From the IMG/VR virus record IMGVR_UViG_3300010392_000634: a stretch of DNA of 64,000 bases. One strand, 5' to 3'. The first letter of the stretch is position 1; each line of letters opens with the position of its first letter. The stretch comes from a virus. Under the pieces are notes generated by a model. The model saw nothing but the letters and a program-made list of their open reading frames with translations, had not been told where the DNA came from and ran no database searches. The position numbers were made by a program, and so were the translations under genes. Positions 23,197-60,286 of the stretch are shown one piece after another.

Positions 23197-23707
23197 AGAT
23201 TATGTTATAATCAATGCCCTTTTTGGGTTTTTCCCATTAGTTTTATTTTTTTTATTTTGTATCATATTCTTGTTCTTGGATATTGGCTTGCCGTTATTTG
23301 TACTCTTGTTGTTATTTGTCATTGCAGCTTATAGTGCAAGCGTGATATCACTTATTGTCTCTGCATGTTATCATATACATACTTCAAGAGTAGACTATGA
23401 CCTTGAAAAACCTCGACTTGATGATTACAGAGACGGTTATGACCACGATTGGGGTAAATACAATGTTGATGTAGCAGAATATGAAGCTACAAGAAAATAT
23501 GCACCAATCGAAAAAATGAGTAGAACAGACGTTATTAAACTAATGGTTACATTGACATTTTGGCCAGTATTTGTGTTAAAATGTATTTTTGACTGGCTTG
23601 TATCATTATTTAACCCAATTATCAAAACTTTTGTTTATATTATAGGAGAAAAGAATGAAGGCGATTCGGATGCCGAAGATAGAACAGTTTCGGACAGTAG
23701 TCAGTAA
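23180..23707 (+). CDS. membrane protein, FWP family
   Basis: Contains TFWPVFVLKCIF; start at ATG 23180. Confidence 0.5.
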   Translation: MNVPNKDYVIINALFGFFPLVLFFLFCIIFLFLDIGLPLFVLLLLFVIAAYSASVISLIVSACYHIHTSRVDYDLEKPRLDDYRDGYDHDWGKYNVDVAEYEATRKYAPIEKMSRTDVIKLMVTLTFWPVFVLKCIFDWLVSLFNPIIKTFVYIIGEKNEGDSDAEDRTVSDSSQ

Positions 23708-47287: not shown

Positions 47288-48031
47288 ATGTGGAAGGTAA
47301 TTCTTTTTCTTTTGCTAATCTCACCATGTATGGCAGACCAAGGCTTAATTGCCAAGAAACCATATGATGATGAAATATATGTCTGCAAGAAAAGAACTCT
47401 CTATATTGCTGTTGACAAAACAGAGCTAACTACGTTAGAATCTAGCTTAACTAAAAGATGGATTGATAGAGTCAATCCGAAAGTTCTAGCAACACTTGAT
47501 TCGGATTTTATTTCTGACAAAATGTTGGAATATGACTTACGTGTTGCGAACATCAAGAGGCATTTTGATGTCAAATTTGTAGACTGGTATGACCAGAATA
47601 TTACCTACTACCCAGCTTATAAAATTGGAAGTGTTTGGCATCCATTGCCTAAAGGTGAGTATGAATCTCATAGGTGGTTGCAATTTTGGGAGTGGTTCAT
47701 TCGTGAGTGGAATCTTCTAGATAATCATGAGCGATGGGATATCAAAAAATGGTCCATAAGAAATGAAGTATACAATCAACGTACAGCAGACAGAAAAAAG
47801 TTTGTTGAAAATTTAGTCTCAAATAGCGATGGTAGATACAGTTACGTTGAATATGGATGCGACGAAGTAGACGAAATTGGTGACTGTGGTTATTATGTCG
47901 TATTCGATAATAATACACAAGAAGGTGTTACCATATTTGATATTGGTTATGTCCCAAAACATATGCCAGCAGAGCCAGTGGAACCAGTAAGTACTGAATG
48001 TCCATTGGACCCAAAATACAAAATAAACTAA
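47288..48031 (+). CDS. secreted hypothetical protein
   Basis: Signal peptide MWKVILFLLLISPCMA; 247 aa; lies inside the tRNA array. Confidence 0.55.
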   Translation: MWKVILFLLLISPCMADQGLIAKKPYDDEIYVCKKRTLYIAVDKTELTTLESSLTKRWIDRVNPKVLATLDSDFISDKMLEYDLRVANIKRHFDVKFVDWYDQNITYYPAYKIGSVWHPLPKGEYESHRWLQFWEWFIREWNLLDNHERWDIKKWSIRNEVYNQRTADRKKFVENLVSNSDGRYSYVEYGCDEVDEIGDCGYYVVFDNNTQEGVTIFDIGYVPKHMPAEPVEPVSTECPLDPKYKIN

Positions 48032-48034
48032 TAT

Positions 48035-48107
48035 GGGGTTATAGCTCAATTGGATAGAGCAACGGTCTTCTACACCGTAGGTCGGGGTTCGAGTCCCTGT
48101 AGCCCTA
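48035..48107 (+). tRNA. tRNA-Arg (anticodon TCT)
   Basis: Acceptor GGGGTTA/TAGCCCT, D-arm GCTC..GAGC, anticodon stem ACGGT/ACCGT with loop CTTCTAC. Confidence 0.8.
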
Positions 48108-48112
48108 CTTAA

Positions 48113-48187
48113 CTCGCTGTAGCTCAATTTGGTAGAGCGGCGGTCTGAAGAGCCGCGTCTGTAATGGTTCGATTCCATTTAGCGGGA
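48113..48187 (+). tRNA. tRNA-Phe (anticodon GAA)
   Basis: Acceptor CTCGCTG/TAGCGGG, anticodon stem GCGGT/GCCGC with loop CTGAAGA, T-arm AATGG-TTCGATT-CCATT. Confidence 0.7.
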
Positions 48188-48214
48188 CTTTTAAAAAAAA
48201 TACGACAGATGGCA

Positions 48215-48243
48215 TTGACAACATGATTCAACTCATGTACAAT
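48215..48243 (+). promoter_or_regulatory. sigma70-type promoter (TTGACA, 17 bp, TACAAT) inside the tRNA array
   Basis: Consensus -35 at 48215-48220 and -10 at 48238-48243 with a 17-bp spacer. Confidence 0.45.
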
Positions 48244-48255
48244 ATGCAAAACAAC

Positions 48256-48325
48256 GTGGAAGTAGCTCAGTTTGGTAGAGCAGGGTTCGCGACCTGTGTC
48301 GGTGGTTCGATTCCACCCTTCCCGG
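48256..48325 (+). tRNA. atypical tRNA-like gene (70 nt, short anticodon arm; anticodon undetermined, possibly CGC)
   Basis: Canonical D-arm TAGCTCAGTTTGGTAGAGC and T-arm GGTGG-TTCGATT-CCACC, but mismatches at 1-72 and 2-71 and only ~19 nt between the D and T arms. Confidence 0.4.
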
Positions 48326-48384
48326 CTTGCAGAAGAACAAAGGGTGTGTTCGTACAATGGGCACATTTTTCTTCTGCTAAACAT

Positions 48385-48458
48385 TGGAGATTGGTGAAGA
48401 GGACTAACACACTCCCCTCATAAGGGAATATTCACGGGTTCGAATCCCGTATCTCCTA
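48385..48458 (+). tRNA. tRNA-Met/fMet/Ile2 (anticodon CAT)
   Basis: Acceptor (T)GGAGAT/ATCTCC(T), anticodon stem CTCCC/GGGAA with loop CTCATAA, T-arm ACGGG-TTCGAAT-CCCGT. Confidence 0.7.
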
Positions 48459-48594
48459 TTAGAATGTTCTCCGCACGAGAACGCGGCATTAAGCGGGAGG
48501 GGATACCCTTGACATACGGAAGACTGCTATAGAAGTCCAAGTATTTTCGGTAATAGAACGACTTACCCTCATGCGGAGAATATTTTATACATAT
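48459..48594 (+). other. structured non-coding spacer with a 9-bp inverted repeat (TTCTCCGCA ... TGCGGAGAA)
   Basis: Repeat arms at 48467-48475 and 48562-48570, about 90 nt apart, between two CAT tRNAs. Confidence 0.25.
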
Positions 48595-48663
48595 CGCAGA
48601 TGGTCCGGTGACCAGCCAAGCCTCATAAGCTAGGATAGACAGGTTCAACCCCTGTATCTGCCA
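48595..48663 (+). tRNA. short tRNA-like gene with CAT anticodon loop (69 nt, minimal D-arm)
   Basis: Acceptor CGCAGAT/ATCTGCC, D hairpin GGTC-CGGT-GACC, loop CTCATAA, T-arm ACAGG-TTCAACC-CCTGT. Confidence 0.4.
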
Positions 48664-48817
48664 TTTTTGTAGGAGTTAACTTAACAGCTACATGCTATAG
48701 CTTAATAGTTATCTTCTGCATTATGTCTAGGAGTTGCGGTAGTTGGTTACTACACTCTCTTATAAGCAAAAGTCCTTAAGAGAAACCAAAAACAACTCTA
48801 TTGGACATAAAATTTTC

Positions 48818-49432
48818 TCAAATTCGAGATATAAAATGCTGTTCTCTATGACAATTAGCACATAGAAGTTGACATTTATCTAACTCGGATTTGATTTTAA
48901 TATGATGCTTCTCCCAAGAAGTGTGTCTGGCTTTTGATATATTAAAGTCTTTTTCAGTTGGGTCAACATGATGAAAGTCTAATGCCCCTTGACATTTATC
49001 GTAACCGCATTTTTCGCATTTGCCGCCCTTGTATTCAATACACTTTTGTTTCATAAGCTGATGTCTTTCTATTGCTTTTTCGGTATTACATGTTTTGCAA
49101 GTAGGATGATATGTGAATTTGATTTTACTCGTTCTTTTATGAAAGAATGATATATCTTTTTCTATATTGCATTTGTTACAAACTTTTGTTTTTAGTTCAG
49201 TATAAACTTTTTTATAAGCACCGATGTCGAAACATTTTTTACAATAAGTTAAATTTGCTGCAATTTTTTCTTGACAAATTTTACATTCTTTTGTAAGATG
49301 TCTTTTAACATGAATTTTGTTATTATATGTTGCAGAACATGAGCGGCTACAAAAGTGATTAGGGCTTTTTTTAATTTCACTTGGTAGTTTTTTAAATTCC
49401 GTGTTACAGTTTAAACAATTGACCTGTGGCAT
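48818..49432 (-). CDS. HNH homing endonuclease
   Basis: The only convincing minus-strand gene; Cys-rich zinc fingers and DFHHVDP ... CANCHREQH HNH motif; sits inside the tRNA array. Confidence 0.65.
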   Translation of the reverse strand: MPQVNCLNCNTEFKKLPSEIKKSPNHFCSRSCSATYNNKIHVKRHLTKECKICQEKIAANLTYCKKCFDIGAYKKVYTELKTKVCNKCNIEKDISFFHKRTSKIKFTYHPTCKTCNTEKAIERHQLMKQKCIEYKGGKCEKCGYDKCQGALDFHHVDPTEKDFNISKARHTSWEKHHIKIKSELDKCQLLCANCHREQHFISRI

Positions 49433-49496
49433 GATATTCCTTCGTGTTTGTTATATTGTTGTTAGTTCGTCTCCCACTATATTATACACCTTTTTC

Positions 49497-49568
49497 GCGT
49501 CTAAAGTGTTATTGGCTGCATTTCTGGCTTCCAACCAGACGGTCAGGGTTCGAGTCCCTGTAGACGCA
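49497..49568 (+). tRNA. tRNA-Gly (anticodon TCC)
   Basis: Acceptor GCGTCTA/TAGACGC, anticodon stem TCTGG/CCAGA with loop CTTCCAA, T-arm CAGGG-TTCGAGT-CCCTG. Confidence 0.65.
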
Positions 49569-49837
49569 CTTTCGGGCTATTTTCGGATTTGCCTAGATAA
49601 CGGAAGAATTAACTTCAAGTAGTGGTTGATGGACAGGCCACTTTAAAAGTCTATCAAAAAGTAACTGCAAAACAGTTCGCAATCGCTGCGTAATAGCAGC
49701 TAATGATGCCTGACTGAGCTATAAATCATGTCAAAACAGGTAGAAGCTGTAAAGCCTGTGGATTTATCTCAGCAACAACATATACTTTGCCGGTGAAGTC
49801 ATCGGATAAACTTGTAAACGTTATTTGAATAAATTAT

Positions 49838-49871
49838 ACTAGAAACGACGGTTCGAATCCGTCATAGTCCA
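49838..49871 (+). other. orphan tRNA 3'-half-like element (T-arm plus acceptor 3' strand)
   Basis: GACGG-TTCGAAT-CCGTC-ATAGTCC-A with no complementary 5' acceptor within 150 nt upstream; lies immediately upstream of the HNH gene at 49886. Confidence 0.3.
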
Positions 49872-49885
49872 ATAGATATTGATAT

Positions 49886-50431
49886 ATGTACACAAAATTA
49901 GTTTGTAACTATTGTGGTAATTACTTCGAAAAGAAAACCAACGAATATAATAGATGCGTCAAAAAAGGACAAAAGAATTATTTTTGTTCTAGGGACCATG
50001 CAAACAAATTTTTACCACGGCCACACTTAAAACCGAGAATGGAAAATATCATTCCCGGCTCATTTAAAGATGAATATTCTGATTTTAAGTGGTATATGAA
50101 GGTTGTAAGAAATCGATGTAATAAAAAACAATACGAAACAGATATTAGTTTAATGTTTTTAAAACATCTTTGGAAAGAACAAGAAGGTAAATGTGCATTA
50201 ACTCAAATACCTATGCAATTAAGAACTCATGATAGTTCAGATAAGTTGGAATTTTATACTGCATCGTTAGACAGGATAGACAACACAAAAAGATATACAA
50301 AAGATAATGTTAGATTTGTCTGTGTTATGACTAACTATGCGAGAAATACTTTTTCTGATAATGATTTTTATGAGTTTATAAAACTAGCATCAAAAGCTAT
50401 TTTAGGAAAAGGAAAAAAGGATGGCAATTAA
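49886..50431 (+). CDS. HNH-family homing endonuclease-like protein
   Basis: N-terminal CNYCG ... FCSRDH zinc finger shared with the other HNH genes; C-terminal SLDRIDNTKRYTKDNVRFVC. Confidence 0.45.
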   Translation: MYTKLVCNYCGNYFEKKTNEYNRCVKKGQKNYFCSRDHANKFLPRPHLKPRMENIIPGSFKDEYSDFKWYMKVVRNRCNKKQYETDISLMFLKHLWKEQEGKCALTQIPMQLRTHDSSDKLEFYTASLDRIDNTKRYTKDNVRFVCVMTNYARNTFSDNDFYEFIKLASKAILGKGKKDGN

Positions 50432-51026
50432 CAAACAACCCACTCTAGGAAAAAAAGCACAAGAAGCCGGTATCAAAGATGCAGTGCATGTTGCTATCGT
50501 TTCGTGTCGTGCTGGTGGACCCCTCTCTCCCGGTGATAGGGTGAAACTCAACGAGTATAGAGAAGCAATCAAGACATATAGTAAAGACTATATCGGAGTT
50601 GCTGACCCTTTCATTAAGGGAGGTATTGACAAAGGAAGTTTCTTCTGGCTTGTAATGAAGCCTAATGAAACTGAAGCAGTTCGGCATGTTTGGGACCACG
50701 AATTGGACTTTTCCGCTCCAGACCGTGAAGTTCAGGAATGCAAATGGATAAAAGAGTACGCAGACGACCTTGGGGTGAGCTATCAGTTCTTGATGGATGC
50801 TGCAAGAAAAGCTGTCAATGGAGAGTCTTCTCCTAAGTACGAAGGAACAAAAACTCAGGAAGAAATCGAAGAAGTATTAGATGACTTCTATGACTTCTGG
50901 TATTACTGGAGCGAAGAAACTGGATACGAGTTTGAAAACTGTGGGTCTGCGTGTTGTCCAGAATACGAACATCCTTCCTCGTTTAGTATATTTGACTATT
51001 CTGAAGCTAAGAGTGAAGAATCTTAG
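50421..51026 (+). CDS. paralog-family protein A3 (DAVHVAIVS ... PGDRV ... GVADPFI ... RHVWDHE)
   Basis: Third paralog; C-terminal GSACCPEYE Cys motif. Confidence 0.55.
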   Translation: MAINKQPTLGKKAQEAGIKDAVHVAIVSCRAGGPLSPGDRVKLNEYREAIKTYSKDYIGVADPFIKGGIDKGSFFWLVMKPNETEAVRHVWDHELDFSAPDREVQECKWIKEYADDLGVSYQFLMDAARKAVNGESSPKYEGTKTQEEIEEVLDDFYDFWYYWSEETGYEFENCGSACCPEYEHPSSFSIFDYSEAKSEES

Positions 51027-51037
51027 ACTTTAGATAA

Positions 51038-51111
51038 CAACCCATAGTGTCAATGGTCTAGCACATTACTCTGATAAGGTAATAGTCGTGGTTCGAGTCC
51101 ACGTGGGTTGA
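51038..51111 (+). tRNA. tRNA-Ile (anticodon GAT)
   Basis: Acceptor CAACCCA/TGGGTTG, D-stem GTGT/GCAC, anticodon stem TTACT/GGTAA with loop CTGATAA. Confidence 0.8.
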
Positions 51112-51115
51112 CTTT

Positions 51116-51186
51116 CGCATCTTAGTTTAAAGCTAGAATACCTACCATGAGGGTAGGAGACGGTGGTTCAATTCCATCAGGTGCGA
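51116..51186 (+). tRNA. atypical tRNA-like gene (71 nt; loop CATGAGG, anticodon possibly TGA with A33)
   Basis: Acceptor CGCATCT/AGGTGCG pairs 7/7; tiny D-arm AGTT-TAA-AGCT; anticodon stem CCTAC/GTAGG; T-arm GGTGG-TTCAATT-CCATC. Confidence 0.5.
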
Positions 51187-51249
51187 CTTTAAGAGATGTT
51201 AGAAAAATAGGTCGTCTATCAACCTTTGTTCTCCGGCATCTCTTTATAA

Positions 51250-51322
51250 TGTGGAGTAGCTCAATTGGCAGAGCACTTGTCTTGTAAACAAGAGGTTGCG
51301 GGTTCGATGCCCGTCTCCACAT
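51250..51322 (+). tRNA. tRNA-Thr (anticodon TGT)
   Basis: Acceptor TGTGGAG/CTCCACA, D-arm GCTC..GAGC, anticodon stem CTTGT/ACAAG with loop CTTGTAA. Confidence 0.8.
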
Positions 51323-51327
51323 CTTAT

Positions 51328-51400
51328 GCCTCTGTAGCTCAATGGTTAGAGCAAGAAACTCTAAACTTCTTGGTTGCAGGTTCGAATCCTGTCGGGGGCA
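51328..51400 (+). tRNA. tRNA with anticodon CTA (putative amber suppressor)
   Basis: Fully canonical 73-nt tRNA: acceptor GCCTCTG/CGGGGGC, D-arm GCTC-AATGGTTA-GAGC, T-arm GCAGG-TTCGAAT-CCTGT. Anticodon stem AGAAA/CTTCT has an A31-C39 mismatch and the loop is CTCTAAA, so positions 34-36 read CTA. Confidence 0.6.
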
Positions 51401-51584
51401 CTGTTTTTATTTTTAACAAAACTATCTTCAAAGGAGAAAAGTAATGTTGTAGGTTGACGAAAAATGGTTAGCACATGGTGAATTAGTTTGGAGTTTCTAT
51501 CAGAAGCTCTTAAAAGGTGACTGGGATAATTTAAGACTCCCAGAGTGGTTTGTAGAGCATCACGAAATACTCGTATCTCTTCAG

Positions 51585-52259
51585 TTGCCTATCAAACAAG
51601 TTAAACAGTATATCATTTATCACGATTGCGGAAAGCATTTGTGTGAAACTGTTGACGAAGGTGGTAAACATTATCCAGACCACGCGAATGTTTCTGCTGA
51701 TTATTGGGCAGAACATAGTGATGACAAACTAGTTGAGAAGTTGATTCGTAATGATATGTTTTTTCATATCTGTAAAGCGAATGACTTAAAAGAAACAACA
51801 CTAACCAAACGTGAATTAGCAACATTATTAGTGACAGCACTTGCTGAGATTCATGCCAATGCAGAAATGTTCGGTGGAATCGAATCACAATCTTTCAAAA
51901 TTAAATACAAGCAGATTGAAAGACGTGGCAAATCCTTCGTAAAAGATAATCTTATCGACAATTACAAGGGTTACACATACTGTTTTGTGAGAACAGATAT
52001 TACTCCCTCTCAACAAGCAGTACAAATGTCACATGCGTGCATTGAAGCACAGAAAAAATTCAGTCCTAGTAGGCATCCATCAATTGTGGCTATCGGGACT
52101 AAAAAGAAAAAAATACAAAAAATTATACAGGAATGTATTGACAACGAGATAGATTTCGCTATATTTAGAGATAACATATTTGATAACGAGGTCACAGCAA
52201 TTGCAACTGAACCTCTTTATGAAAACAGAAAAGTTTTTGACAGGTATACATTACTCTAA
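51585..52259 (+). CDS. two-domain protein: N-terminal HD-like region plus C-terminal peptidyl-tRNA hydrolase PTH2-like domain
   Basis: YHDCGKH (HD-like) in the N-terminus; C-terminal YCFVRTDITPSQQAVQMSHACIEA ... VTAIATEP resembles the PTH2 core; no in-frame ATG upstream, so the start is probably TTG. Confidence 0.5.
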   Translation: MPIKQVKQYIIYHDCGKHLCETVDEGGKHYPDHANVSADYWAEHSDDKLVEKLIRNDMFFHICKANDLKETTLTKRELATLLVTALAEIHANAEMFGGIESQSFKIKYKQIERRGKSFVKDNLIDNYKGYTYCFVRTDITPSQQAVQMSHACIEAQKKFSPSRHPSIVAIGTKKKKIQKIIQECIDNEIDFAIFRDNIFDNEVTAIATEPLYENRKVFDRYTLL

Positions 52260-52277
52260 ATTAAAGGACCAACTATC

Positions 52278-52715
52278 GTGTTAGTCTCGAAGTACAATCC
52301 AAAATTTGATGGTTGTTTACATGTACAACAATACAAACAACTATCTGAACTTTATCTGGAAAATTTTAATGCTCCAGTATTGACATACAACGAGTTTGTC
52401 GATAGAATCAATTCAGACGATGTCACTATTTACACTTTCGAAGTGGGTGACAAAGTAGTGGCAACAGCTTCAGGATATTTATACCCGTCTCTGTTACACG
52501 GTGGACAGCCTAGAATGCAGATTGAAAATGTCTGCACTAGAAAAGAGCATCAAGGTAATGGATATGCATCACATTTAATCGGATTGCTCATAGAGCTGGC
52601 AGAAGAAAAAGGGTGCTATAAAGTATCACTAAGCTGTTCTGACAAAAACTTGGACTTCTATCAGAATAGAGGTTTCAAACAACATGAACACACTATGAGG
52701 ATTGATTTGGTATGA
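52278..52715 (+). CDS. GNAT family N-acetyltransferase
   Basis: Acetyl-CoA-binding motif HQGNGYASHLIG; GTG start. Confidence 0.6.
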   Translation: MLVSKYNPKFDGCLHVQQYKQLSELYLENFNAPVLTYNEFVDRINSDDVTIYTFEVGDKVVATASGYLYPSLLHGGQPRMQIENVCTRKEHQGNGYASHLIGLLIELAEEKGCYKVSLSCSDKNLDFYQNRGFKQHEHTMRIDLV

Positions 52716-52906
52716 CTACTGCTGATACGCATTTAGAGAATGCAAGAGACAAAGTAAAAGAGGCTGTTCGTGACCTATCACAAATTTTAATCGAAGAGTG
52801 TTATGGACATGATGAATATGCTGAAAGTTTCAATTTAAAACTGGAATCAGCATTTACAAAACTGAGAGTAGTTGATAAACTACTAAATAATAAAGATATC
52901 GAATAA
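52712..52906 (+). CDS. hypothetical protein
   Basis: 64-aa ORF. Confidence 0.4.
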   Translation: MTTADTHLENARDKVKEAVRDLSQILIEECYGHDEYAESFNLKLESAFTKLRVVDKLLNNKDIE

Positions 52907-53094
52907 AAACGACAAGGCGAATGATATGACTCGTCACCATATTATGCTTGCCGCAAACCAATCAACTGCTGCTCGCAGAGAGCATAAAGTTGTATTGAGA
53001 ACATATTCCACAACGACGATTACAGTGGTGCAGATTGAGACGTGAGGGTAATTGCCTCTAACTTCCATCTAAATGTTTGCTAGATTTTTATTCA

Positions 53095-53154
53095 TCGCGG
53101 GTAATGCTAAGGGAATCATTGACTAAGCTGGCGGTTTGAATCCGCTCCCGCAAC
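53095..53154 (+). other. 60-nt tRNA-like mini-element (acceptor + D-arm + T-arm, no anticodon arm)
   Basis: TCGCGGG-TA-AATG..CATT-...-GGCGG-TTTGAAT-CCGCT-CCCGCAA; the acceptor strands pair. Confidence 0.3.
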
Positions 53155-53309
53155 CAACAAATAATGTATGACAAGCCGAATGACTATGAATCAACTTGGC
53201 GTAAACCTGTTTTTAGGTCGCTACTAAAGACAGAGAATTGAGTACAGGCTAGTGAATTAGCTACTCACGAACAGGTCTGTAGAAATGTTTACTTGATACA
53301 TTAAAATAT

Positions 53310-53384
53310 GGCGGTGTAGTCCAATTGGCAGGAGACGCATGTCTTAGGAACATGACAGTATGGGTTCGAATCCCATTGCCGCTA
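53310..53384 (+). tRNA. tRNA, anticodon TAG (Leu-type anticodon but short variable loop)
   Basis: Acceptor GGCGGTG/TGCCGCT (with wobbles), anticodon stem CATGT/ACATG with loop CTTAGGA, T-arm ATGGG-TTCGAAT-CCCAT; 3-nt connector between the D and anticodon stems. Confidence 0.55.
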
Positions 53385-53682
53385 CTTTTATGGCCGTGAG
53401 TGAAAAGAGGCTGTTGAAATACATAAGCCGTTCACCTTAATAGTATGATAAATGTGTCAAATAAAACATACTGTATCTTACGCTTTGACTTATTGCGTCG
53501 GTCATATTTAATATAAGAGGTCGAGCCGGTGTGCGACTAAGTCTAGTAGACTGCTAGATTGAATACGTCGGTTCATCCAGAAGTTAACTGGCTTATGTGC
53601 GAACGCGGAGTAGTCACTGCTTAGTAGGCATATGTTTGGGCTTCATCACGGATGCACATCGGCACGCCCTCTTATATAACAT

Positions 53683-53773
53683 TCCCCGGTACGCTAACTG
53701 GTAAGCGGCCAAGCTGTTAACTTGGTGTAGTCCGTCTTTGAACGGTATAGAGGTTCGACTCCTCTCTGGGGAG
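53683..53773 (+). tRNA. class-II (long variable arm) tRNA, anticodon GTT by manual reading
   Basis: Acceptor TCCCCGG/CTGGGGA, D-arm CGC-TAACTGGTAA-GCG, anticodon stem CCAAG/CTTGG with loop CTGTTAA, variable-arm hairpin CCGT..ACGG; Tyr-like architecture with a non-GTA anticodon. Confidence 0.55.
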
Positions 53774-53788
53774 CTTAGGAGAAATACT

Positions 53789-54223
53789 ATGAAGGTTTTG
53801 ATTAGCGGACATAGAAAATCAAAATTAGCCAACTATGACATCAAATGGATATCTAATGAAATAGAACGGCTTATATTTGAGAATCCAGCTATAATTGGAT
53901 TATCAGGGATGGCCGATGGCATAGACCTTTTATACTGCCAACTATTACTTCAATATAGGCGTGGGTATCATTGCTATATCCCCTTTGATGAACAAGACAA
54001 GTATATGTCAGACCATGATAAAACATGGCGTCAAAGTTTAATTGACTCATCTTGGGCTGTCATAAAAGCAAAAAATTCACAAATGGTTTCAGATTGTGAT
54101 TATGGAATCATAGTTTGGGATGGAAATAAAGGTGGTACACACAACGTGTTCCAGCAAATGCTCGAAGCAAAGAAAAACTTTTGGTGGATTGAACCACATA
54201 ATCAAAAAGTAATTTATTTTTAA
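53789..54223 (+). CDS. hypothetical protein, possibly SLOG/YpsA-like Rossmann fold
   Basis: RBS AGGAGAAATACT; LISGHRKSKL ... GLSGMADGIDLL; start moved downstream of the tRNA. Confidence 0.5.
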   Translation: MKVLISGHRKSKLANYDIKWISNEIERLIFENPAIIGLSGMADGIDLLYCQLLLQYRRGYHCYIPFDEQDKYMSDHDKTWRQSLIDSSWAVIKAKNSQMVSDCDYGIIVWDGNKGGTHNVFQQMLEAKKNFWWIEPHNQKVIYF

Positions 54224-54296
54224 GGTATTAAAATGTCTATTAAACGCAAACGCAAACATCGATAAACGCATGGAGTTTATGACTTCATGTTAGCAT

Positions 54297-54368
54297 GGGG
54301 TCATGGTGTAGCGGTTGCATTGCAGACTTTTAATCTGTTAGGCGGGGGTTCGAATCCCTCTGGCCCTA
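54297..54368 (+). tRNA. tRNA-Lys (anticodon TTT)
   Basis: Acceptor GGGGTCA/TGGCCCT, anticodon stem GCAGA/TCTGT with loop CTTTTAA, T-arm GGGGG-TTCGAAT-CCCTC. Confidence 0.75.
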
Positions 54369-54396
54369 TTTTTAAACACATATGAAAAAAAGATAT

Positions 54397-54471
54397 AGGG
54401 GATTAGTTCAATTGGATAGAATATCAGTCTACGAAACTGAAGATGTTGAGGTTCGAGTCCTACATTCCCTA
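54397..54471 (+). tRNA. tRNA-Arg (anticodon ACG)
   Basis: Acceptor AGGGGAT/ATTCCCT, D-stem GTTC/GAAT, anticodon stem TCAGT/ACTGA with loop CTACGAA; weak T-stem. Confidence 0.7.
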
Positions 54472-54479
54472 CTTTATTT

Positions 54480-54902
54480 ATGAAAAAACAATGCTATCAA
54501 TGCAACCAAGAGTTGCCACTATCCTCTTTTAATAAAAACTGCAAGAAAAAAGATGGGTTGCAATCAGAGTGTAGAGATTGTGGCAAGACGTACCGTAAAC
54601 AGCATTATCAAGATAACAAACAGTATTATATAGATAAGGCAGTAAAAAGACGGGACAACAATGTTAAAAAACTTACGCCTTTATTAGTAGAATATCTGGA
54701 ACAGAATCCTTGTGTGGACTGTGGAAACAATGATATACGTGTGCTGCATTTTGACCATTTAGAAAATAAGCAATATCATGTCCCGGAAATGATTAGACTA
54801 GGACATAGTTGGCAAAATATTCTATCTGAGATATCGAAATGCGATGTTAGATGTGCTAACTGTCACGCCATCAAAACATGGCCGAACAGGTTTGATACTT
54901 AG
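54480..54902 (+). CDS. HNH homing endonuclease
   Basis: N-terminal CYQC ... CRDCG zinc finger; HFDHLENK ... CANCH HNH motif. Confidence 0.65.
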   Translation: MKKQCYQCNQELPLSSFNKNCKKKDGLQSECRDCGKTYRKQHYQDNKQYYIDKAVKRRDNNVKKLTPLLVEYLEQNPCVDCGNNDIRVLHFDHLENKQYHVPEMIRLGHSWQNILSEISKCDVRCANCHAIKTWPNRFDT

Positions 54903-54911
54903 GAATAAAAC

Positions 54912-55121
54912 ATGGAAATCACTGGAAAAGAAGTATCGGAATGGCTAATTAGCAATAAAGACAGGCTTGCTTTTATCTTGCCAAAAGTCGATGTTGCTGA
55001 ATTAGGCAAATGTATCTATGCTGTTGAAGATGATGCAATTATTTTTATGCTTCAGGAAATTCAATATCCAGAAGTTAAGCTGGACAACATGTGTCCTGAA
55101 ATAGATAATACGGGGGCGTAG
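54912..55121 (+). CDS. hypothetical protein
   Basis: 69-aa ORF; its 3' end overlaps the start of the next tRNA by ~9 nt. Confidence 0.4.
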   Translation: MEITGKEVSEWLISNKDRLAFILPKVDVAELGKCIYAVEDDAIIFMLQEIQYPEVKLDNMCPEIDNTGA

Positions 55122-55187
55122 CCCAATTAGGCAGAGGCAAGCGACTTAAAATCGCTCCAGTATGGGTTCGAGTCCCATCGTCCCTAC
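55113..55187 (+). tRNA. tRNA, anticodon TAA (Leu-type anticodon but short variable loop)
   Basis: Acceptor GGGGGCG/CGTCCCT, anticodon stem AGCGA/TCGCT (perfect) with loop CTTAAAA, T-arm ATGGG-TTCGAGT-CCCAT. Confidence 0.55.
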
Positions 55188-55235
55188 TCACGTGACAGTT
55201 TTAAAAGAGGTTTCTGTACAAAAAACCAATACATA

Positions 55236-55307
55236 CCAGATTAGTGTAATTGGTAGCACATCGGTTTCCAAGTCCGAAAGTCAGGGTTCGAGTCCTTGGT
55301 CTGGTGC
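55236..55307 (+). tRNA. tRNA-Trp (anticodon CCA)
   Basis: Acceptor ACCAGAT/GTCTGGT, D-arm GTG..CAC, anticodon stem TCGGT/TCCGA with loop TTCCAAG. Confidence 0.7.
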
Positions 55308-55317
55308 TTTTTTAATG

Positions 55318-55399
55318 GGAATACTACGCTTGTGGGAAAGTGGGATGGGTTGTAACCCCGTCGTCTCTGACTAAGCGGTTCGATTCCGTATATTCCCAC
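55318..55399 (+). tRNA. tRNA-Tyr (anticodon GTA), class II
   Basis: Acceptor GGGAATA/TATTCCC (perfect), anticodon stem ATGGG/CCCGT with loop TTGTAAC, 12-nt variable arm. Confidence 0.7.
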
Positions 55400-55412
55400 T
55401 TGGAGGTTCAAA

Positions 55413-55636
55413 TGTCAAAATTCTTATTTTTCGATATCTTAGGATATTTAGAAGAGACAGATACTCCAGTACTCAAAAAATGGTTCGACTTCGATAAAGA
55501 AGAAGGACAAATTTTGATTAAAGATTATGTTTTTACCGTAAGACCAAAAGATTCGTATATAATTGGAAAAATTCCACAAACGGACTTGAATTACGACAAC
55601 TACATAACTATAATTGATACAATCAACGAAGGATAA
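55413..55636 (+). CDS. hypothetical protein
   Basis: RBS TTGGAGGTTCAA; start moved downstream of tRNA-Tyr. Confidence 0.45.
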
Positions 55637-55639
55637 AAC

Positions 55640-56047
55640 ATGCATTGGCCAAAACTATTTTTCAAACGTGCAGACGGTGGTGAAAAATCTGGTGTAACTG
55701 GTTATATGTTGATTGAATGGAAGTCAGTTTTCTCAATTGGGCTGTTACATTTTAAAGAAGGCTCACGAGAAGCATTTCATACACACGCATTCAATGCTAT
55801 TACTTGGTGGCTTAAAGGTCTTGTTGTAGAAGTACACGCTAATGCGGATAATATACTTGACAAATTCAAATTATTTCGTCCGTCATTAAAACCAAAATTT
55901 ACAAGTAGAGACTGCTATCATAAAATTATAGCATACACAGATACTTGGGCCTTAACTTTTCGAGGACCGTGGAAAAACGAATGGAAAGAGTTAAGACCTG
56001 ACGGTGAAGTAGTTTTAACTCATGGAAGAAAAATTCAGTCTCTATAA
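55640..56047 (+). CDS. hypothetical protein
   Basis: 135-aa ORF. Confidence 0.5.
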   Translation: MHWPKLFFKRADGGEKSGVTGYMLIEWKSVFSIGLLHFKEGSREAFHTHAFNAITWWLKGLVVEVHANADNILDKFKLFRPSLKPKFTSRDCYHKIIAYTDTWALTFRGPWKNEWKELRPDGEVVLTHGRKIQSL

Positions 56048-56170
56048 ATAATATCAACTTGAGAGTATAACAGATTCATGACTGGCCGTAGTTGAGAACA
56101 TAAGAAACGCTACGAGCAAGTTGGTAACTGAAACCGTGGGAGGCAGCGGTATACAAACAGCCTTATATGA

Positions 56171-56243
56171 GGGCTGGCATGTACCAAGGGGGCGAGAAAT
56201 ACTTGCAATATTTCTGTGACGAGTTCGATTCTCGTTCGGTCCA
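56171..56243 (+). tRNA. tRNA-Ala (anticodon TGC)
   Basis: Acceptor GGGCTGG/TCGGTCC includes the G3-U70 alanine identity pair; anticodon stem AAATA/TATTT with loop CTTGCAA; T-arm ACGAG-TTCGATT-CTCGT; irregular D-arm. Confidence 0.6.
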
Positions 56244-56246
56244 TTT

Positions 56247-56771
56247 ATGATATATTATATAGAAAAATCTGGTAGAAAACGAAAAGGAATAGAGAAGACA
56301 TGTCCTGTATGTCATAATTTGTTTGTAACTAGACTAGACCAACAAGGAACATATTGTTCTAAACAGTGCTGTTCTGATAGTCGTAAGAATAAGGTACAAT
56401 TACAATGTGACTGCTGTGATAAATTGTTTTACAGACATCCTAGTGCTTTATCTTGTTCAAAAAGCGGGTTTTATTTTTGTTCTAGGGAATGTAAGGACAA
56501 ATCACAAAGACTTGGTGGTATTGAAGAAATTATGCCGAGTCACTACGGTTCATTCCAAGGTAGAAAATCAGCTATATATCGTAGAACATATAAAGAGCTG
56601 AATAATATAGAAATACTATCATGTATTCGCTGCGGATATTCTGAATTTGAATCTGCTGTAGACATCCATCATATTGATGAAAATTGTAATAACAACTCAA
56701 TAGAAAACTTAACTGCCTTATGTGCGTGTTGTCATAGGGGATTACATTATAGGCTGTGGGAATTACAATGA
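56247..56771 (+). CDS. HNH homing endonuclease
   Basis: CPVCHN ... zinc finger; HHIDENCNNNSIENLTALCACCHRGLH HNH motif. Confidence 0.65.
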   Translation: MIYYIEKSGRKRKGIEKTCPVCHNLFVTRLDQQGTYCSKQCCSDSRKNKVQLQCDCCDKLFYRHPSALSCSKSGFYFCSRECKDKSQRLGGIEEIMPSHYGSFQGRKSAIYRRTYKELNNIEILSCIRCGYSEFESAVDIHHIDENCNNNSIENLTALCACCHRGLHYRLWELQ

Positions 56772-57211
56772 TAGTAGAACCAAAAGAAATTCCATATGTC
56801 AAAATTTTAGATGGACAGACGGTTGGTCTAACAAGCGGTTGTTTTGACTTGCTCCACTTCTATCATTTGAATTATCTATTACGTTGTAAAGCTAGATGCG
56901 ATGTTTTAATCGTAGGCGTCGATGCTGACGACGTAGTCCAAGAAAACAAAGGTAAAGCACCAGCTAATCCTGAATATCACAGAGCAGCAATGTTAGCCGC
57001 ATTAGACTGTGTTGATGTGGTTTTTGTCTTACGAAGTCTTGATGACCTAGTAAAAGCTGGTGACCATGCAGATTTTCTGTTTAAAAATAATCCAACTATT
57101 TACGGACAAGAAGTAGTTGGTACGCAAAGAGCAGAATTGGTAATCGTGCCAGATGTTGAGGAAGTTACTTCAACAACTGCTCTGAAAGATAAAATCAGGA
57201 GAGATACATGA
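56768..57211 (+). CDS. cytidylyltransferase-like nucleotidyltransferase (HxGH family)
   Basis: GCFDLLHFYHLNYL (HxGH-type motif) at the N-terminus. Confidence 0.55.
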   Translation: MIVEPKEIPYVKILDGQTVGLTSGCFDLLHFYHLNYLLRCKARCDVLIVGVDADDVVQENKGKAPANPEYHRAAMLAALDCVDVVFVLRSLDDLVKAGDHADFLFKNNPTIYGQEVVGTQRAELVIVPDVEEVTSTTALKDKIRRDT

Positions 57212-57402
57212 GATTTACACAGCTTAAAAATGGTGAAGGAATTAAACGCGGTGTAATTGATATTATCGGTGCGTTTTCTGGAACCCCAAAAATAATACAG
57301 CATATGCAATTTCACGATGAAAATAATTTTGAGTCGAAAAATGAAGATGCTGAAAATGGAAGAGAGCCGAATATTGGTTTGTCGGACTCGCCTGCTAAGT
57401 GA
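57208..57402 (+). CDS. hypothetical protein (doubtful; 3' end overlaps tRNA-Ser)
   Basis: 64-aa ORF whose last ~45 nt coincide with the tRNA beginning at 57358. Confidence 0.25.
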   Translation: MRFTQLKNGEGIKRGVIDIIGAFSGTPKIIQHMQFHDENNFESKNEDAENGREPNIGLSDSPAK

Positions 57403-57445
57403 GGCCGTAGCAATGCGGTGATGGGTTCAATTCCCTCCTCTTCCG
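57358..57445 (+). tRNA. tRNA-Ser (anticodon GCT), class II
   Basis: Acceptor GGAAGAG/CTCTTCC, anticodon stem CTCGC/GTGAG with loop CTGCTAA, long variable arm. Confidence 0.7.
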
Positions 57446-57607
57446 CTTTAGTCAATCGGTTTCTAACGAGAGAATACGTGGAAGATTGGTCCCATTAGAC
57501 TAACCTGTGTTATCACGATGTTTTAGGTGCTGTGATTTAATGGAATTACTATGCAACACTACATATATAGCACAGGCGTAGCAAAGTCTCTTATTGACTA
57601 CTTATTT

Positions 57608-57694
57608 GGAAGCTATCCTGCTGGATTAGGAGCTTGTTTAGAAAACATGTGGGTCAGAAATGGCCTTGGTCGGGTTCGAGTCCCCCAGCTTCCG
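57608..57694 (+). tRNA. class-II tRNA (Ser/Leu-type), anticodon uncertain (AGA or TAG)
   Basis: Acceptor GGAAGCT/AGCTTCC (perfect), D-arm CCTG..., long variable arm, T-loop TTCGAGT; the anticodon stem has a mismatch. Confidence 0.55.
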
Positions 57695-57702
57695 CTTTTT
57701 AT

Positions 57703-57776
57703 GGTGACTGTAGTGTAATTGGTTAGCACGGGACCTTGTGACGGTTCTAGTGCGGGTTCAAGTCCCGTCGTTCACC
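57703..57776 (+). tRNA. tRNA-His (anticodon GTG) with encoded G-1
   Basis: Extra 5' G pairs with discriminator C; acceptor GTGACTG/CGTTCAC; anticodon stem GGACC/GGTTC with loop TTGTGAC; T-arm GCGGG-TTCAAGT-CCCGT. Confidence 0.7.
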
Positions 57777-57784
57777 CCTTTTTT

Positions 57785-57869
57785 GGAAGTCATCCGGCTG
57801 GATGAGGGTGCTGTCTTGAAAATAGCTGTGTCATTTATGGCATTGTGGGTTCGAGTCCCACGGCTTCCG
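57785..57869 (+). tRNA. tRNA-Ser (anticodon TGA), class II
   Basis: Acceptor GGAAGTC/GGCTTCC, anticodon stem GCTGT/ATAGC with loop CTTGAAA, variable-arm hairpin TGTCAT..ATGGCA. Confidence 0.7.
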
Positions 57870-58135
57870 CTTATGTAAAGTCTATGAGTTAATCCAACCC
57901 GGACAATGATTCGTAGCAAACACTGGAGGATAGGCAGGACGAAAGTGTAAAAGTCCAATGAAGGGCGGTTGTGGCAGTAGCTCCAACTTCCCAGAGGATG
58001 CTGTTTTTTCCCTGCAAAATAGACACCTTCGCTATCCTTCAGGTTTTATACAAGGAAATTAATATGGGCTGTCAATATATCTAGAGTGGTGTATTGATAA
58101 TCACAATAAAATCAAAAAGACATTAGGACAATAAG

Positions 58136-58543
58136 ATGGACAGCTTTGAAACAAACTTTACGATTATGCCAAAAGATGCAAACTATATGTATCCAATGGT
58201 ATTCGGCGGAGCACTTTATTCCGAAATGGATTTATGTGCAGCAAAATGTGTTGATTTGTTTCTAATTCCATCTGAATGTCAGGCTGCTGTAACTCATAAG
58301 TCAAAAGTTGAGTTTATGAAGCCTACATACGTTGGTGATACAATTCACTTGTATGCTAATGTTGTGAGTACAGGTAAAAAATCAGTAGTAGTTTTTGTTT
58401 CAGCTCATAGAAATCGCAGAGGTGAAACGGGGCAAGAAAAAGTAGCAGATGGTGAATTTATTTTTGTGTCAATCGAAAATACTGACGATGTACAAAATAA
58501 GCCAGACCTACTTCCATATAAAGAACATGGATTAAATTTGTGA
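58136..58543 (+). CDS. acyl-CoA thioesterase, hot-dog fold
   Basis: YMYPMVFGGALYSEMD matches the 4HBT-type hot-dog N-terminal motif. Confidence 0.55.
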   Translation: MDSFETNFTIMPKDANYMYPMVFGGALYSEMDLCAAKCVDLFLIPSECQAAVTHKSKVEFMKPTYVGDTIHLYANVVSTGKKSVVVFVSAHRNRRGETGQEKVADGEFIFVSIENTDDVQNKPDLLPYKEHGLNL

Positions 58544-58633
58544 CTTTTTTTTGGATTTTTCATGTTTTTATCTTTACTTTTTGGTCTTTCAATACTATTA
58601 TCTATTGTAACAACACTTTTTAAAAAATAACAT

Positions 58634-58704
58634 GCCGTATTCGTCTATCGGGAGGATACTTGGTTCTCAGCCAAGAGAGAGGGGTTCGATTCCCCTATAC
58701 GGTA
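58634..58704 (+). tRNA. tRNA-Glu-like (anticodon CTC by manual reading)
   Basis: Acceptor GCCGTAT/ATACGGT, Glu-type D-arm GTCTATCGGGAGGA, anticodon stem CTTGG/CCAAG with loop TTCTCAG. Confidence 0.6.
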
Positions 58705-58785
58705 CTTAGGGTAGAGAAGTAGAACTCTTATAAATGATAAGCAGGCGACCTGAAATCGCCGTTCAGCCTAATCGTCCTAAAACAC

Positions 58786-58858
58786 GCCGCATTCGTCTAC
58801 TGGATAGGACACGTAGGTTTTCAACCTATGGACACGGGTTCGAATCCCGTATGCGGTA
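58786..58858 (+). tRNA. tRNA-Glu (anticodon TTC)
   Basis: Acceptor GCCGCAT/ATGCGGT, D-arm GTC-TACTGGATAG-GAC, anticodon stem GTAGG/CCTAT with loop TTTTCAA. Confidence 0.75.
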
Positions 58859-58939
58859 CTTTATAGGATGTTCGTCTAAGCGGGCTATAAACAAGGTAGC
58901 AGTGTTAAAAATATAACATGATTTGCTCCAATCCTACAT

Positions 58940-59012
58940 GGGGTTATAGCTCAAGTGGCAGAGCACCCGTCTCTTAAACGGGAGCGTGTGGGTTCGAGTA
59001 CCACTAGCCCTA
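58940..59012 (+). tRNA. tRNA-Lys (anticodon CTT)
   Basis: Acceptor GGGGTTA/TAGCCCT (same as the Arg-TCT gene), anticodon stem CCCGT/ACGGG with loop CTCTTAA; T-stem has a G-A closing pair. Confidence 0.65.
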
Positions 59013-59018
59013 CTTTTT

Positions 59019-59096
59019 AACTACGGAACTTAATATCAGCGGCTGGTAGCCGGACTGCAAATCTGGTAGTAAGCAGTTCGACTCTGCCTGTAGTTT
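59019..59096 (+). tRNA. tRNA-Cys (anticodon GCA); 5' boundary uncertain
   Basis: Anticodon stem CCGGA/TCTGG with loop CTGCAAA and T-loop TTCGACT, both as in bacterial tRNA-Cys; acceptor AACTACG/TGTAGTT; enlarged D region. Confidence 0.55.
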
Positions 59097-59107
59097 TTGA
59101 GGATTAT

Positions 59108-59314
59108 ATGAGGAAATTCATTAAAGAGGGAACATTCTGGGAAGATGGGGATGGGCTATTGTACAAAGTGATTTGTATAGCAAACTTCGATAATAAATCT
59201 CCCAATTTCCCAGAAACTGTTGTATATGAATCTTTTCCCAAAAATGAAGATTACACATATGCTAATAAAATTGATTACTTTTTAGAAAATATGCAACAAA
59301 TTATTTGGGAATAA
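59108..59314 (+). CDS. hypothetical protein
   Basis: 68-aa ORF between tRNAs. Confidence 0.4.
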   Translation: MRKFIKEGTFWEDGDGLLYKVICIANFDNKSPNFPETVVYESFPKNEDYTYANKIDYFLENMQQIIWE

Positions 59315-59529
59315 GTTTGAAATCTCGCAAAGAAAAAAATATTATCGTTGAAGCAAAATTTAATGTTCCAACAGATAGTACACTCTACTACATATTCAAA
59401 CGAGCAAATATGCTAGGGTGGAGAACATATAAAAGATACGCGAATCTAAGTGCAGCAGAAGAAGCAATCAAAACGTTAAACAAAAATGGTTCAACTGCTC
59501 ACCAAGAATTTCGCATAAAACAGTCGTGA
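59305..59529 (+). CDS. hypothetical protein
   Basis: 74-aa ORF; start uncertain. Confidence 0.35.
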   Translation: MGISLKSRKEKNIIVEAKFNVPTDSTLYYIFKRANMLGWRTYKRYANLSAAEEAIKTLNKNGSTAHQEFRIKQS

Positions 59530-59553
59530 GGTAGGACTTTAAACACCTCTCAT

Positions 59554-59627
59554 GGTCATGAAGCTCAGAAGGGAGTAGCATCCGGTTGTCAACCGGAAGG
59601 TTGCGGGTTCGACCCCCGTGATGACCG
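59554..59627 (+). tRNA. tRNA-Asp (anticodon GTC)
   Basis: Anticodon stem TCCGG/CCGGA (perfect) with loop TTGTCAA; T-arm GCGGG-TTCGACC-CCCGT; acceptor GGTCATG/GATGACC with one mismatch. Confidence 0.65.
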
Positions 59628-59787
59628 CTTGCAATTCGGCAGTGCTCGTTCGTCGCTGTACAGGACAACCTTGCATGGGTTCTGGTAACGGAGGTACGTA
59701 ACGAACTTACCGGGGCACTATGTAGCAAACCTAGCTGTAATTGCAAAGCCCGGCTTTCGACGTAACATTCCGAAAGTCGGGTTACAT

Positions 59788-59859
59788 AGCTCTATAGTGT
59801 AATTGGCAACACAGGTGGTTTTGAGCCATCTATTCTAGGTTCGAGTCCTAGTGGGGCTA
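59788..59859 (+). tRNA. tRNA-Gln (anticodon TTG)
   Basis: Acceptor AGCTCTA/TGGGGCT, D-arm GTG..CAC, anticodon stem GGTGG/CCATC with loop TTTTGAG, T-arm CTAGG-TTCGAGT-CCTAG. Confidence 0.7.
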
Positions 59860-60286
59860 CTTTCTATGTGTAATGAGCACCAGAATTAAAAAAAGTACTC
59901 GCAGAGACCATTATTGTGAAATCTGGGACACGGTCAGGGCTGCGGTTTCGCTCATTTGACGACGAGTCGGTAAAACGTTGACTTCTGGGAACAGACCAGT
60001 TCACGCCGGAACCTTCAGGTAAGTACGTTGTGGTCAATTTTAATACGTTGGGGACTGCCCATCTAAAGCGTTGACTGCTAATTTCGAAAACGTATGGCAG
60101 ATGAGATGGTTATCGCACATGGGTTACATCAACTCTGGTTGGTTCGATTCCAACATCCGGCACTTCTTTTTGTGTTAGCAACAACTGGAATCGGATACTA
60201 GACTCCGACGTTAAACTAAAAATGGAGATTCCCAGCAGTGGGTACGCGAAGCCTTCAATGGTAATGGCTAACACTTCTCTTTTCTT
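59860..60286 (+). other. 427-nt non-coding region with (A)CGTTG direct repeats and a terminal orphan T-arm/acceptor element
   Basis: CGTTG-containing motifs at 59976, 60026, 60046 and 60069. At 60138-60162 sits GTTGG-TTCGATT-CCAAC-ATCCGGC-A, with no matching 5' acceptor within tRNA distance. Confidence 0.3.

Follow-up and report, generated by a model that had tools for sequence, protein, structure and literature searches.

Nematode nev-tRNAs are charged with leucine and bacterial allo-tRNAs with serine; in each, the whole body is of the leucine or serine type and dictates charging. Here we describe five transfer RNA (tRNA) genes in IMG/VR record IMGVR_UViG_3300010392_000634, a 64,000-nucleotide (nt) stretch of phage-like DNA that was analyzed as a whole and that we call the window. 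A preliminary description, folded by hand, had reported that each of the five pairs a well-formed anticodon stem with an unexpected architecture, and had suggested that they might be decoys, recoding tRNAs, or tRNAs charged by non-cognate rules.

Other described systems also bear on these genes. Nearly all bacterial tRNALeu were described as type II in a 2019 study, and the type I tRNALeu(CAA) of Streptomyces coelicolor was leucylated experimentally by its own leucyl-tRNA synthetase (LeuRS) (PMC6614811). A paper on mycobacterial tRNA clusters notes a Leu(UAG) whose variable loop is short. Phage tRNAs are reported to escape anticodon nucleases via changes in the anticodon loop (PMC10264068). 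AriB of the PARIS system cuts Lys(UUU), Thr(UGU), and Asn(GUU) at 40|41, and the versions of these tRNAs from phage T5 rescue infection (PMC12409363).

All five loci are tRNA genes. ARAGORN calls all five, and the Rfam tRNA model RF00005 scores four of them above its gathering score of 29 bits:

51116..51186, + strand: proline-type tRNA paralogue with a non-canonical anticodon loop (ARAGORN 51116-51187, "Ser"(tga), 72 nt; RF00005 47.5 bits)
53310..53384, + strand: class I tRNA-Leu(UAG) (ARAGORN 53310-53385, Leu(tag); RF00005 52.9 bits)
53683..53773, + strand: tRNA-Asn(GUU) with an enlarged variable region (ARAGORN 53683-53774, Asn(gtt), 92 nt; RF00005 50.6 bits)
55112..55186, + strand: class I tRNA-Leu(UAA) (ARAGORN 55112-55187, Leu(taa); RF00005 54.2 bits)
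57608..57694, + strand: class II tRNA-Ser(AGA) (ARAGORN 57608-57695, Ser(aga), 88 nt)

These five genes are four different things and not one phenomenon. The best overall explanation, to which we give a probability of about 70%, is that they comprise two class I leucine tRNAs, a serine tRNA with anticodon AGA, an asparagine tRNA with an insert, and a proline-derived tRNA at 51116. Isotype and anticodon pair consistently in four of them, for which decoy, recoding, or non-cognate roles are unsupported. Only in the gene at 51116 do anticodon and architecture truly disagree, and this gene might have a decoy or other non-decoding role. We judged the identity of each tRNA body from published determinants and from homologues, and our statements about aminoacylation, decoding, and host defenses that cleave tRNAs are predictions from these features. 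(Nearest-neighbor assignment of isotypes with the anticodons masked worked for 51116 and both leucine genes. It gave no information on the asparagine and serine genes and was not used for them.)

Two class I leucine tRNAs of a recurrent type

As first described, the genes at 53310 and 55112 (previously placed at 55113) combine leucine anticodons with variable loops of 5 nt, which are seen in the ARAGORN structures. The gene at 53310 has the variable loop ACAGT, the D-loop AAUUGGCAGG, a D stem of 3 base pairs (bp) with a C13xA22 mismatch, a G1·U72 pair, and A73; CCA is not encoded. The gene at 55112 has the variable loop CCAGT, the same type of D arm, G1·U72, and A73.

A sensitive blastn search of GenBank phages matched the two genes end to end with annotated tRNA-Leu genes of 73-77 nt. 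With 55112 as the query, such genes were found in 31 GenBank phage records, and the closest match to 53310 is the Leu(tag) of Rhodococcus phage Dorin (89.8% over 59 nt). The hosts of the matching phages include Prochlorococcus, Synechococcus, Pseudomonas, Mycobacterium, Rhodococcus, Gordonia, and Streptomyces, as well as Myxococcus, Acinetobacter, Bacillus, and Lactobacillus. In an alignment of 18 class I leucine genes, including both from the window, 99.4% of the cells are paired and 17 of the 20 pairs show a compensatory change. This combination of pairing and covariation was reached by none of 500 shuffles, and slid registers fall far short of it. A14, A15, G18, G19, U48 (the last base of the variable loop), and A73 are invariant across the alignment; the 3-bp D stem with its C13xA22 mismatch is invariant or nearly so, and G1·U72 is present in 17 of the 18 genes. 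The determinants for E. coli LeuRS are A73, A14, A15:U48, G18G19, and U54-A58 (PMC6614811), and both window genes carry all of them.

This type of tRNA is also found in bacterial genomes. We scanned GTDB, with one genome per bacterial species, for a 20-mer from the D arm and obtained at least 120 loci. At least 118 of the matches lie inside tRNA-Leu genes of 73-78 nt with the anticodon UAA, CAA, or UAG, and at a minimum of 108 loci the class I leucine gene is the sole tRNA within 8 kb, which implies that it is a normal chromosomal tRNA type too. Most of the genomes among the matches listed are from Actinomycetota. Among those same matches, roughly 16 of 111 cellular copies have G1·U72 (most have G1-C72), versus 17 of 18 aligned phage copies. 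G1·U72 is also present in some class II leucine tRNAs of phages (in two tRNA arrays described below, L033 and L156).

Thus, the class I architecture is confirmed, but it is of a recurrent and known kind and not anomalous. Both short tRNAs most likely accept leucine, given their determinants, and they would decode UUA and CUA, which the phage uses often: TTA and CTA account for 30% and 15% of the leucine codons in the window. A promoter-like site ends 3 nt ahead of each gene; we give these sites little weight, as the promoter scan overall was barely above shuffles (31 versus 22.5 ± 4).

A serine tRNA with anticodon AGA

The gene at 57608 was previously called class II with an ambiguous anticodon stem. 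It is class II, and the anticodon stem does contain one mismatch (U28·U42); the anticodon itself, AGA, is unambiguous. The window's serine set has three members, the other two being:

57358..57445, + strand: class II tRNA-Ser(GCU), missed by ARAGORN (RF00005 27.5 bits, E = 0.0014, just below the gathering score)
57785..57869, + strand: canonical class II tRNA-Ser(UGA), found by both ARAGORN and Infernal

With Infernal, the gene at 57608 scores only 28.9 bits, on the tRNA-Sec model, and its canonical neighbor Ser(UGA) likewise scores only 34.8. It has the acceptor stem GGAAGCU/AGCUUCC, G73, the anticodon loop UUAGAAA, and a variable arm of 6 bp capped by a GAAA loop. The two serine variable arms that were folded have z scores of -3.4 (57608) and -4.1. 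Besides the U·U mismatch, its imperfections include the T stem, GG-UC-GGG / CCCCC, which has either three G-C pairs or a 2-nt bulge. Its acceptor stem and variable arm both contain compensatory changes relative to Ser(UGA).

In bacteria, the serine determinants are G73, C72, G2-C71, R4-Y69, C11-G24, a large variable arm, and G30-C40 (PMC9976931). The gene at 57608 carries G73, G1-C72, G2-C71, A4-U69, the large variable arm, and G30-C40. Whether it has C11-G24 depends on the register of the D stem: the pair is absent from the UCC/GGA stem drawn by ARAGORN and present in CCU/AGG, one position over. Furthermore, TCT is the commonest serine codon of the window (32%) and is the exact Watson-Crick partner of AGA. 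From these determinants, 57608 appears to be an ordinary serine-type class II tRNA whose A34 would pair exactly with UCU.

The serine tRNAs at 57608 and 57785 have in common an unusual backbone, GGAAGnnA-UCC-nGCUGGAUnA-GGr, with A at position 8 and, in the ARAGORN drawing, acceptor and D stems that are one base apart. The Streptomyces phages BRock and pSt2308 (L018 and L019) have this backbone too, in unannotated Ser(UGA) genes that ARAGORN does not call. The Ser(GCU) gene at 57358-57445 overlaps the 3' end of a mechanically predicted open reading frame (ORF) at 57208-57402.

An asparagine tRNA with an enlarged variable region

The gene at 53683 does read GTT and has a long variable region, as first described; the description of it as tyrosine-like did not hold. 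Its body has U1-A72, G73, and the anticodon loop CUGUUAA, and the cloverleaf is intact outside the insert. The variable region is 23 nt (53726-53748) instead of the 4-5 nt of class I, so the gene is not class I in this respect. Within this region, a 4-bp hairpin (CCGU/ACGG, 53732-53745) is marginal: its folding energy is -3.4 kcal/mol (z = -0.9), and 39 of 200 shuffles fold as well. We considered whether this might be a class II tRNA-Tyr and rejected this, as it has G73 and not A73, has U at position 36, and has an arm no better than shuffles. The window's own Tyr(GTA), at 55317, is 83 nt and is unrelated to it in sequence.

The combination of the anticodon GUU and G73 is a transplantable bacterial identity for asparagine (PMC9976931), and 53683 carries both determinants. 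U1-A72 and G73 are common to 53683 and three other asparagine tRNAs from phages. Just two of the seven serine determinants are found in it, G73 and the long variable region; at the remaining positions it has A72, C2-G71, C4-G69, G11-C24, and A30-U40. Because bacterial asparagine identity lies in the anticodon and G73, 53683 probably remains a substrate for asparaginyl-tRNA synthetase (AsnRS), which would tolerate the extra sequence in the variable loop.

For comparison, the closest relative found is Logan contig L024 (83% identity for a YoqJ-like anchor protein), in which the array and the transfer-messenger RNA (tmRNA) are syntenic. At the same position as 53683, L024 has an Asn(GTT) gene of an ordinary 76 nt. 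In our model, the asparagine tRNA would have acquired extra sequence in its variable loop in one lineage. A blastn search with 53683 found no match in GenBank phages. The idea that the insert is a repeated mini-element was rejected, as it is single-copy in the window.

A proline-type tRNA without U33

The gene at 51116 is labeled as serine by ARAGORN because of its nominal anticodon, UGA. We rejected this assignment: with A73, G72, and a variable loop of 4 nt, it has no serine determinants and would not be a substrate for seryl-tRNA synthetase (SerRS) by known rules. Instead, it has C1-G72, A73, G37, G49, and a D-loop without GG. Bacterial proline determinants are A73, G72, G35, G36, G37, G15:C48, and G49 (PMC9976931). 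In 51116, A73, G72, G35, G37, and G49 are present, while G36 is replaced by A and position 15 is A.

Its anticodon loop is C32 A33 U34 G35 A36 G37 G38. The A at position 33 that was first reported (loop CATGAGG) is real. The 3-nt D-loop reported along with it is only an RNAfold minimum-energy alternative: ARAGORN draws a standard 4-bp D stem with two G·U pairs and a 7-nt loop, and the Rfam match is full-length. C32 and G38 could pair, leaving a loop of 5 nt.

L024 contains an orthologue (8297-8367) with the loop CGUGGGG, that is, with G33, the anticodon UGG, and G36 retained; hence neither copy has U33. The two differ at 9 of 71 positions: six in stems, one in the D-loop, and loop positions 33 and 36. 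All six stem differences preserve pairing, and the anticodon stem has two double compensatory changes. At 0.90 identity, this is the best-conserved tRNA of the two phages (the other pairs with the same anticodon are at 0.57-0.80). A tRNA-Ile precedes the 51116-type gene in both phages, although only a remnant of it is left in L024. Both phages also have a separate, conventional Pro(UGG), and UCA, the nominal codon of 51116, is already served by the window's Ser(UGA) at 57785..57869. A blastn search of GenBank phages with 51116 yielded only 25-nt matches to the T arm.

The body of 51116 thus appears to be either under selection or recently exchanged. We propose a proline-derived paralogue whose body was conserved while its anticodon drifted from UGG to UGA and U33 was missing. 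To judge by its loop, it is probably a poor decoder or not a decoder at all. A more specific idea is that it might be a non-decoding, tRNA-like RNA with a sequence-specific role, such as bait for or an inhibitor of a tRNA-targeting nuclease or toxin of the host, and that the enlarged variable regions of Asn(GUU) and, in L024, Lys(UUU) might likewise shield isoacceptors that nucleases target; we consider this improbable, and somewhat more so than either of the two better alternatives below.

Another phage has an aberrant extra proline-type tRNA: in Pseudomonas phage ZC03 (L001, 601-682), a second "tRNA-Pro(tgg)" of 82 nt, with C33 and an enlarged variable region, adjoins a canonical 75-nt Pro(UGG).

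Alternative explanations

Several points weigh against the combination of two leucine tRNAs, a serine tRNA, an asparagine tRNA with an insert, and a proline-derived tRNA. E. coli LeuRS was unable to charge the type I tRNALeu of S. coelicolor (PMC6614811), so charging by the LeuRS of the phage's host is not guaranteed. The asparagine genes of the window and L024 are 61% identical, which makes their orthology positional, and the apparent insertion could instead be a gene replacement. The U·U mismatch and the weak or bulged T stem of 57608 could reflect partial decay. Finally, the orthologue of 51116 is found in one relative only, and its high conservation could result from a recent transfer between the two phages.

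One alternative is that some of these features are adaptations against host tRNA nucleases: the extra region of the asparagine tRNA and, in 51116, the purine at position 33 and the drifting loop could make the phage tRNAs uncleavable or turn them into baits or inhibitors, and the leucine tRNAs may have lost their long arm for a similar reason. The published cases of nuclease evasion, the targets of PARIS, and the phage's RNA-repair genes (it encodes RtcB and an RNA ligase, and also a tmRNA) make an arms-race origin of the asparagine insert and the 51116 loop plausible by analogy. The lineage has enlarged variable regions on both Asn(GUU) (in the window) and Lys(UUU) (86 nt, in L024), and 51116, whose body is conserved better than any other tRNA of the two phages, has two of its three unpaired differences in the anticodon loop. 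This case is purely circumstantial, however. The extra region of the asparagine tRNA folds no better than shuffles and is known from one genome only, and the class I leucine tRNAs, being normal chromosomal tRNAs in many bacteria, need no defense explanation. We consider the anti-defense explanation unlikely for the set as a whole.

About equally doubtful, in our view, is that three of the genes are degenerating, functionless copies, namely the asparagine tRNA (which has the insert), Ser(AGA) (whose T stem is weak), and 51116 (where A33 and a G36A change are found). Decay is common in large tRNA arrays and has occurred nearby: the tRNA-Ile remnant before the orthologue of 51116 has a deletion of about 30 nt, the window contains a tRNA-like sequence at 48256-48324 that ARAGORN does not call, and some tRNAs of L024 lack U33 or have an anticodon loop of 8 nt. 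The insert of the asparagine tRNA shows no sign of a selected structure. Each of the three genes also has features that do not fit decay, though. The pair-preserving stem differences of 51116, in the most conserved tRNA of the two phages, argue against it, as do the compensatory changes in Ser(AGA) relative to Ser(UGA) and its fit to the top serine codon, and as does the cloverleaf of the asparagine gene, which still scores 50.6 bits.

Recoding or mischarging (serylation of the GTT tRNA, insertion of proline at UCA by 51116, or another residue on the class I leucine tRNAs) is very unlikely. In its favor, SerRS ignores the anticodon and uses the large variable arm and G73 (PMC9976931), and the GTT tRNA has G73 and a long variable region; 51116 joins proline-type ends to the anticodon of a serine codon; and the same array encodes an amber-suppressor tRNA. 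Against it, the arm of the GTT tRNA is marginal, and C72, G2-C71, R4-Y69, C11-G24, and G30-C40 are absent from this tRNA. Moreover, 51116 lacks U33 and G36 (a strong determinant for prolyl-tRNA synthetase), the class I leucine family is a normal cellular type that carries the LeuRS determinants, and the lengths of the window's ORFs give no sign of stop-codon reassignment.

The tRNA array and its relatives

The window is phage-like, with all genes on the + strand and 36-41% G+C, and the array is the tRNA gene set of a large uncultured phage. Other features of the window are:

23655-24719, + strand: Rnl-type RNA ligase, upstream of the array
25639-26763, + strand: RtcB ligase, adjoining the Rnl-type ligase, upstream of the array
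47036..59860, + strand: tRNA array, with 26 tRNAs called by ARAGORN, a tmRNA, and HNH endonuclease genes and small ORFs in between
49574-49874, + strand: tmRNA (tag AKQFAIAA; 68.4 bits)
51328-51401, + strand: amber-suppressor tRNA(CUA), labeled "Pyl" by ARAGORN (RF00005 65.6 bits), 5 nt past Thr(UGU)

Rfam models confirm most of the tRNAs that ARAGORN called in the array, which contains at least one more, the Ser(GCU) found with Infernal. The uncalled sequence at 48256-48324 (+ strand; RF00005 35.4 bits) has, by eye, an anticodon arm cut to a loop of about 5 nt and may be a decayed tRNA. L024 has no counterpart of tRNA(CUA). We considered stop-codon reassignment or recoding in the window and rejected it, as ORF statistics with read-through of TAG, TGA, or TAA gave no clear gain. 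The two ligases (PHROGs and Pfam matches: phrog_548, 8e-59; phrog_1075, 6e-116; PF01139, 2e-90) lie side by side and resemble a tRNA-repair pair. Positions 45027-58628 are identical to Joint Genome Institute (JGI) contig Ga0118733_100024937, so the odd bases have no independent assembly check.

GenBank phages include no close relative of this phage: a megablast search with the array found no match, and the BCS1-like ATPase of the window matches only jumbo phages, at about 30% identity. The genomic contexts of the YoqJ-like anchor, 11 of which were examined, yielded one close relative (L024) and three more distant tRNA arrays (L032, L033, and L156); these three have neither a long-armed asparagine tRNA nor an orthologue of 51116. 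The tmRNA of L024 (1315-1579) is 84% identical to that of the window. A search of IMG/VR with the window's 765-aa protease found no match, and a search with a 224-aa protein found two loci, both without tRNAs. Also in IMG/VR, the 17-mer of the 51116 anticodon arm gave only chance matches in protein-coding DNA, and T-arm and acceptor patterns of the asparagine tRNA and of 51116 gave none. Scans of metagenomes for 51116-type sequences found no match, and a GNAT protein, used as a second anchor, retrieved only itself.

L024 has unusual tRNAs of its own. Its Lys(UUU) (10635-10720) is 86 nt with a variable region of 16 nt; the tRNA at 8373-8447 has an 8-nt anticodon loop (CGGTGTAG); and ARAGORN labels another, at 7284-7359, as His(atg). 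The tRNA-Ile(GAU) remnant, at about 8240-8296 and directly upstream of the 51116 orthologue, has lost the stretch from the anticodon arm into the T arm. Overall, the array may consist of tRNA types in circulation among phages, with ongoing structural change and some decay, and it would supply the phage with tRNAs tuned to its own AT-rich codon usage.

Implications and comparison with known systems

For annotation, our results imply that a leucine tRNA with a short variable loop or a serine tRNA with A34 in a phage is a recurrent type and should not be flagged as anomalous. It seems underappreciated that one type of class I tRNA-Leu is found in phages of very different hosts and as a solitary chromosomal gene in the genomes of at least 108 bacterial species. 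The proline-type tRNA with a purine at position 33, which is conserved between two phages, merits experiments. The two isoacceptors with extra variable-loop sequence, Asn(GUU) here and Lys(UUU) in L024, are both known targets of tRNA-cleaving defenses; if adaptive, this feature and the purine at position 33 would add to the known routes by which phage tRNAs escape from such defenses.

The leucine genes of the window resemble the type I tRNALeu of Actinomycetota and genes from the phages P-SSM7, P-RSM6, S-SKS1, ZC03, and Bromden, along with those of Dorin, Sixama, Mx1, Bacchae, and P59. All have a 5-nt variable loop, a 3-bp D stem with a 13x22 mismatch, the D-loop AAUNGGCAG, A73, and A15:U48, with anticodons of the types UAA, UAG, and CAA, and they align end to end with common covariation. 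The window genes differ from the Streptomyces tRNA in that leucylation was demonstrated for the latter, with its own LeuRS only, and the phage that carries them has a G+C content of 38%.

Pseudomonas phage VCM and related members of Otagovirus have an annotated class II tRNA-Ser(aga), whose anticodon loop, UUAGAAA, is identical to that of the window's gene and whose variable arm is similar (with a GUCAGAAAUGGC core). In the VCM gene, the cloverleaf is perfect, the discriminator base is U, and CCA is encoded. In contrast, the gene in the window has G73, the U·U mismatch, the weak T stem, and the backbone GGAAGnnA-UCC.

Nuclease-resistant phage tRNAs include the tRNALys, tRNAThr, and tRNAAsn of T5, which resist AriB, and mycobacteriophage variants of the anticodon loop; the isoacceptors that are commonly targeted include Asn(GUU), and Pro(UGG) is a minor target of AriB (PMC11464382, PMC12409363, PMC10264068). 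The window resembles these systems, as far as its sequence goes, in having commonly targeted isoacceptors with changes in or beside the anticodon arm, and its genome adds RNA-repair genes. The known resistant tRNAs have point substitutions, whereas the window has the loss of U33 and an insert of about 18 nt in a variable loop.

Finally, the asparagine tRNA at 53683 is like the nev-tRNAs and allo-tRNAs in that it combines a long variable region with the anticodon of a class I isotype. Unlike them, it has an asparagine-type body (U1-A72 and G73) with a weak hairpin, and its asparagine identity elements are intact.

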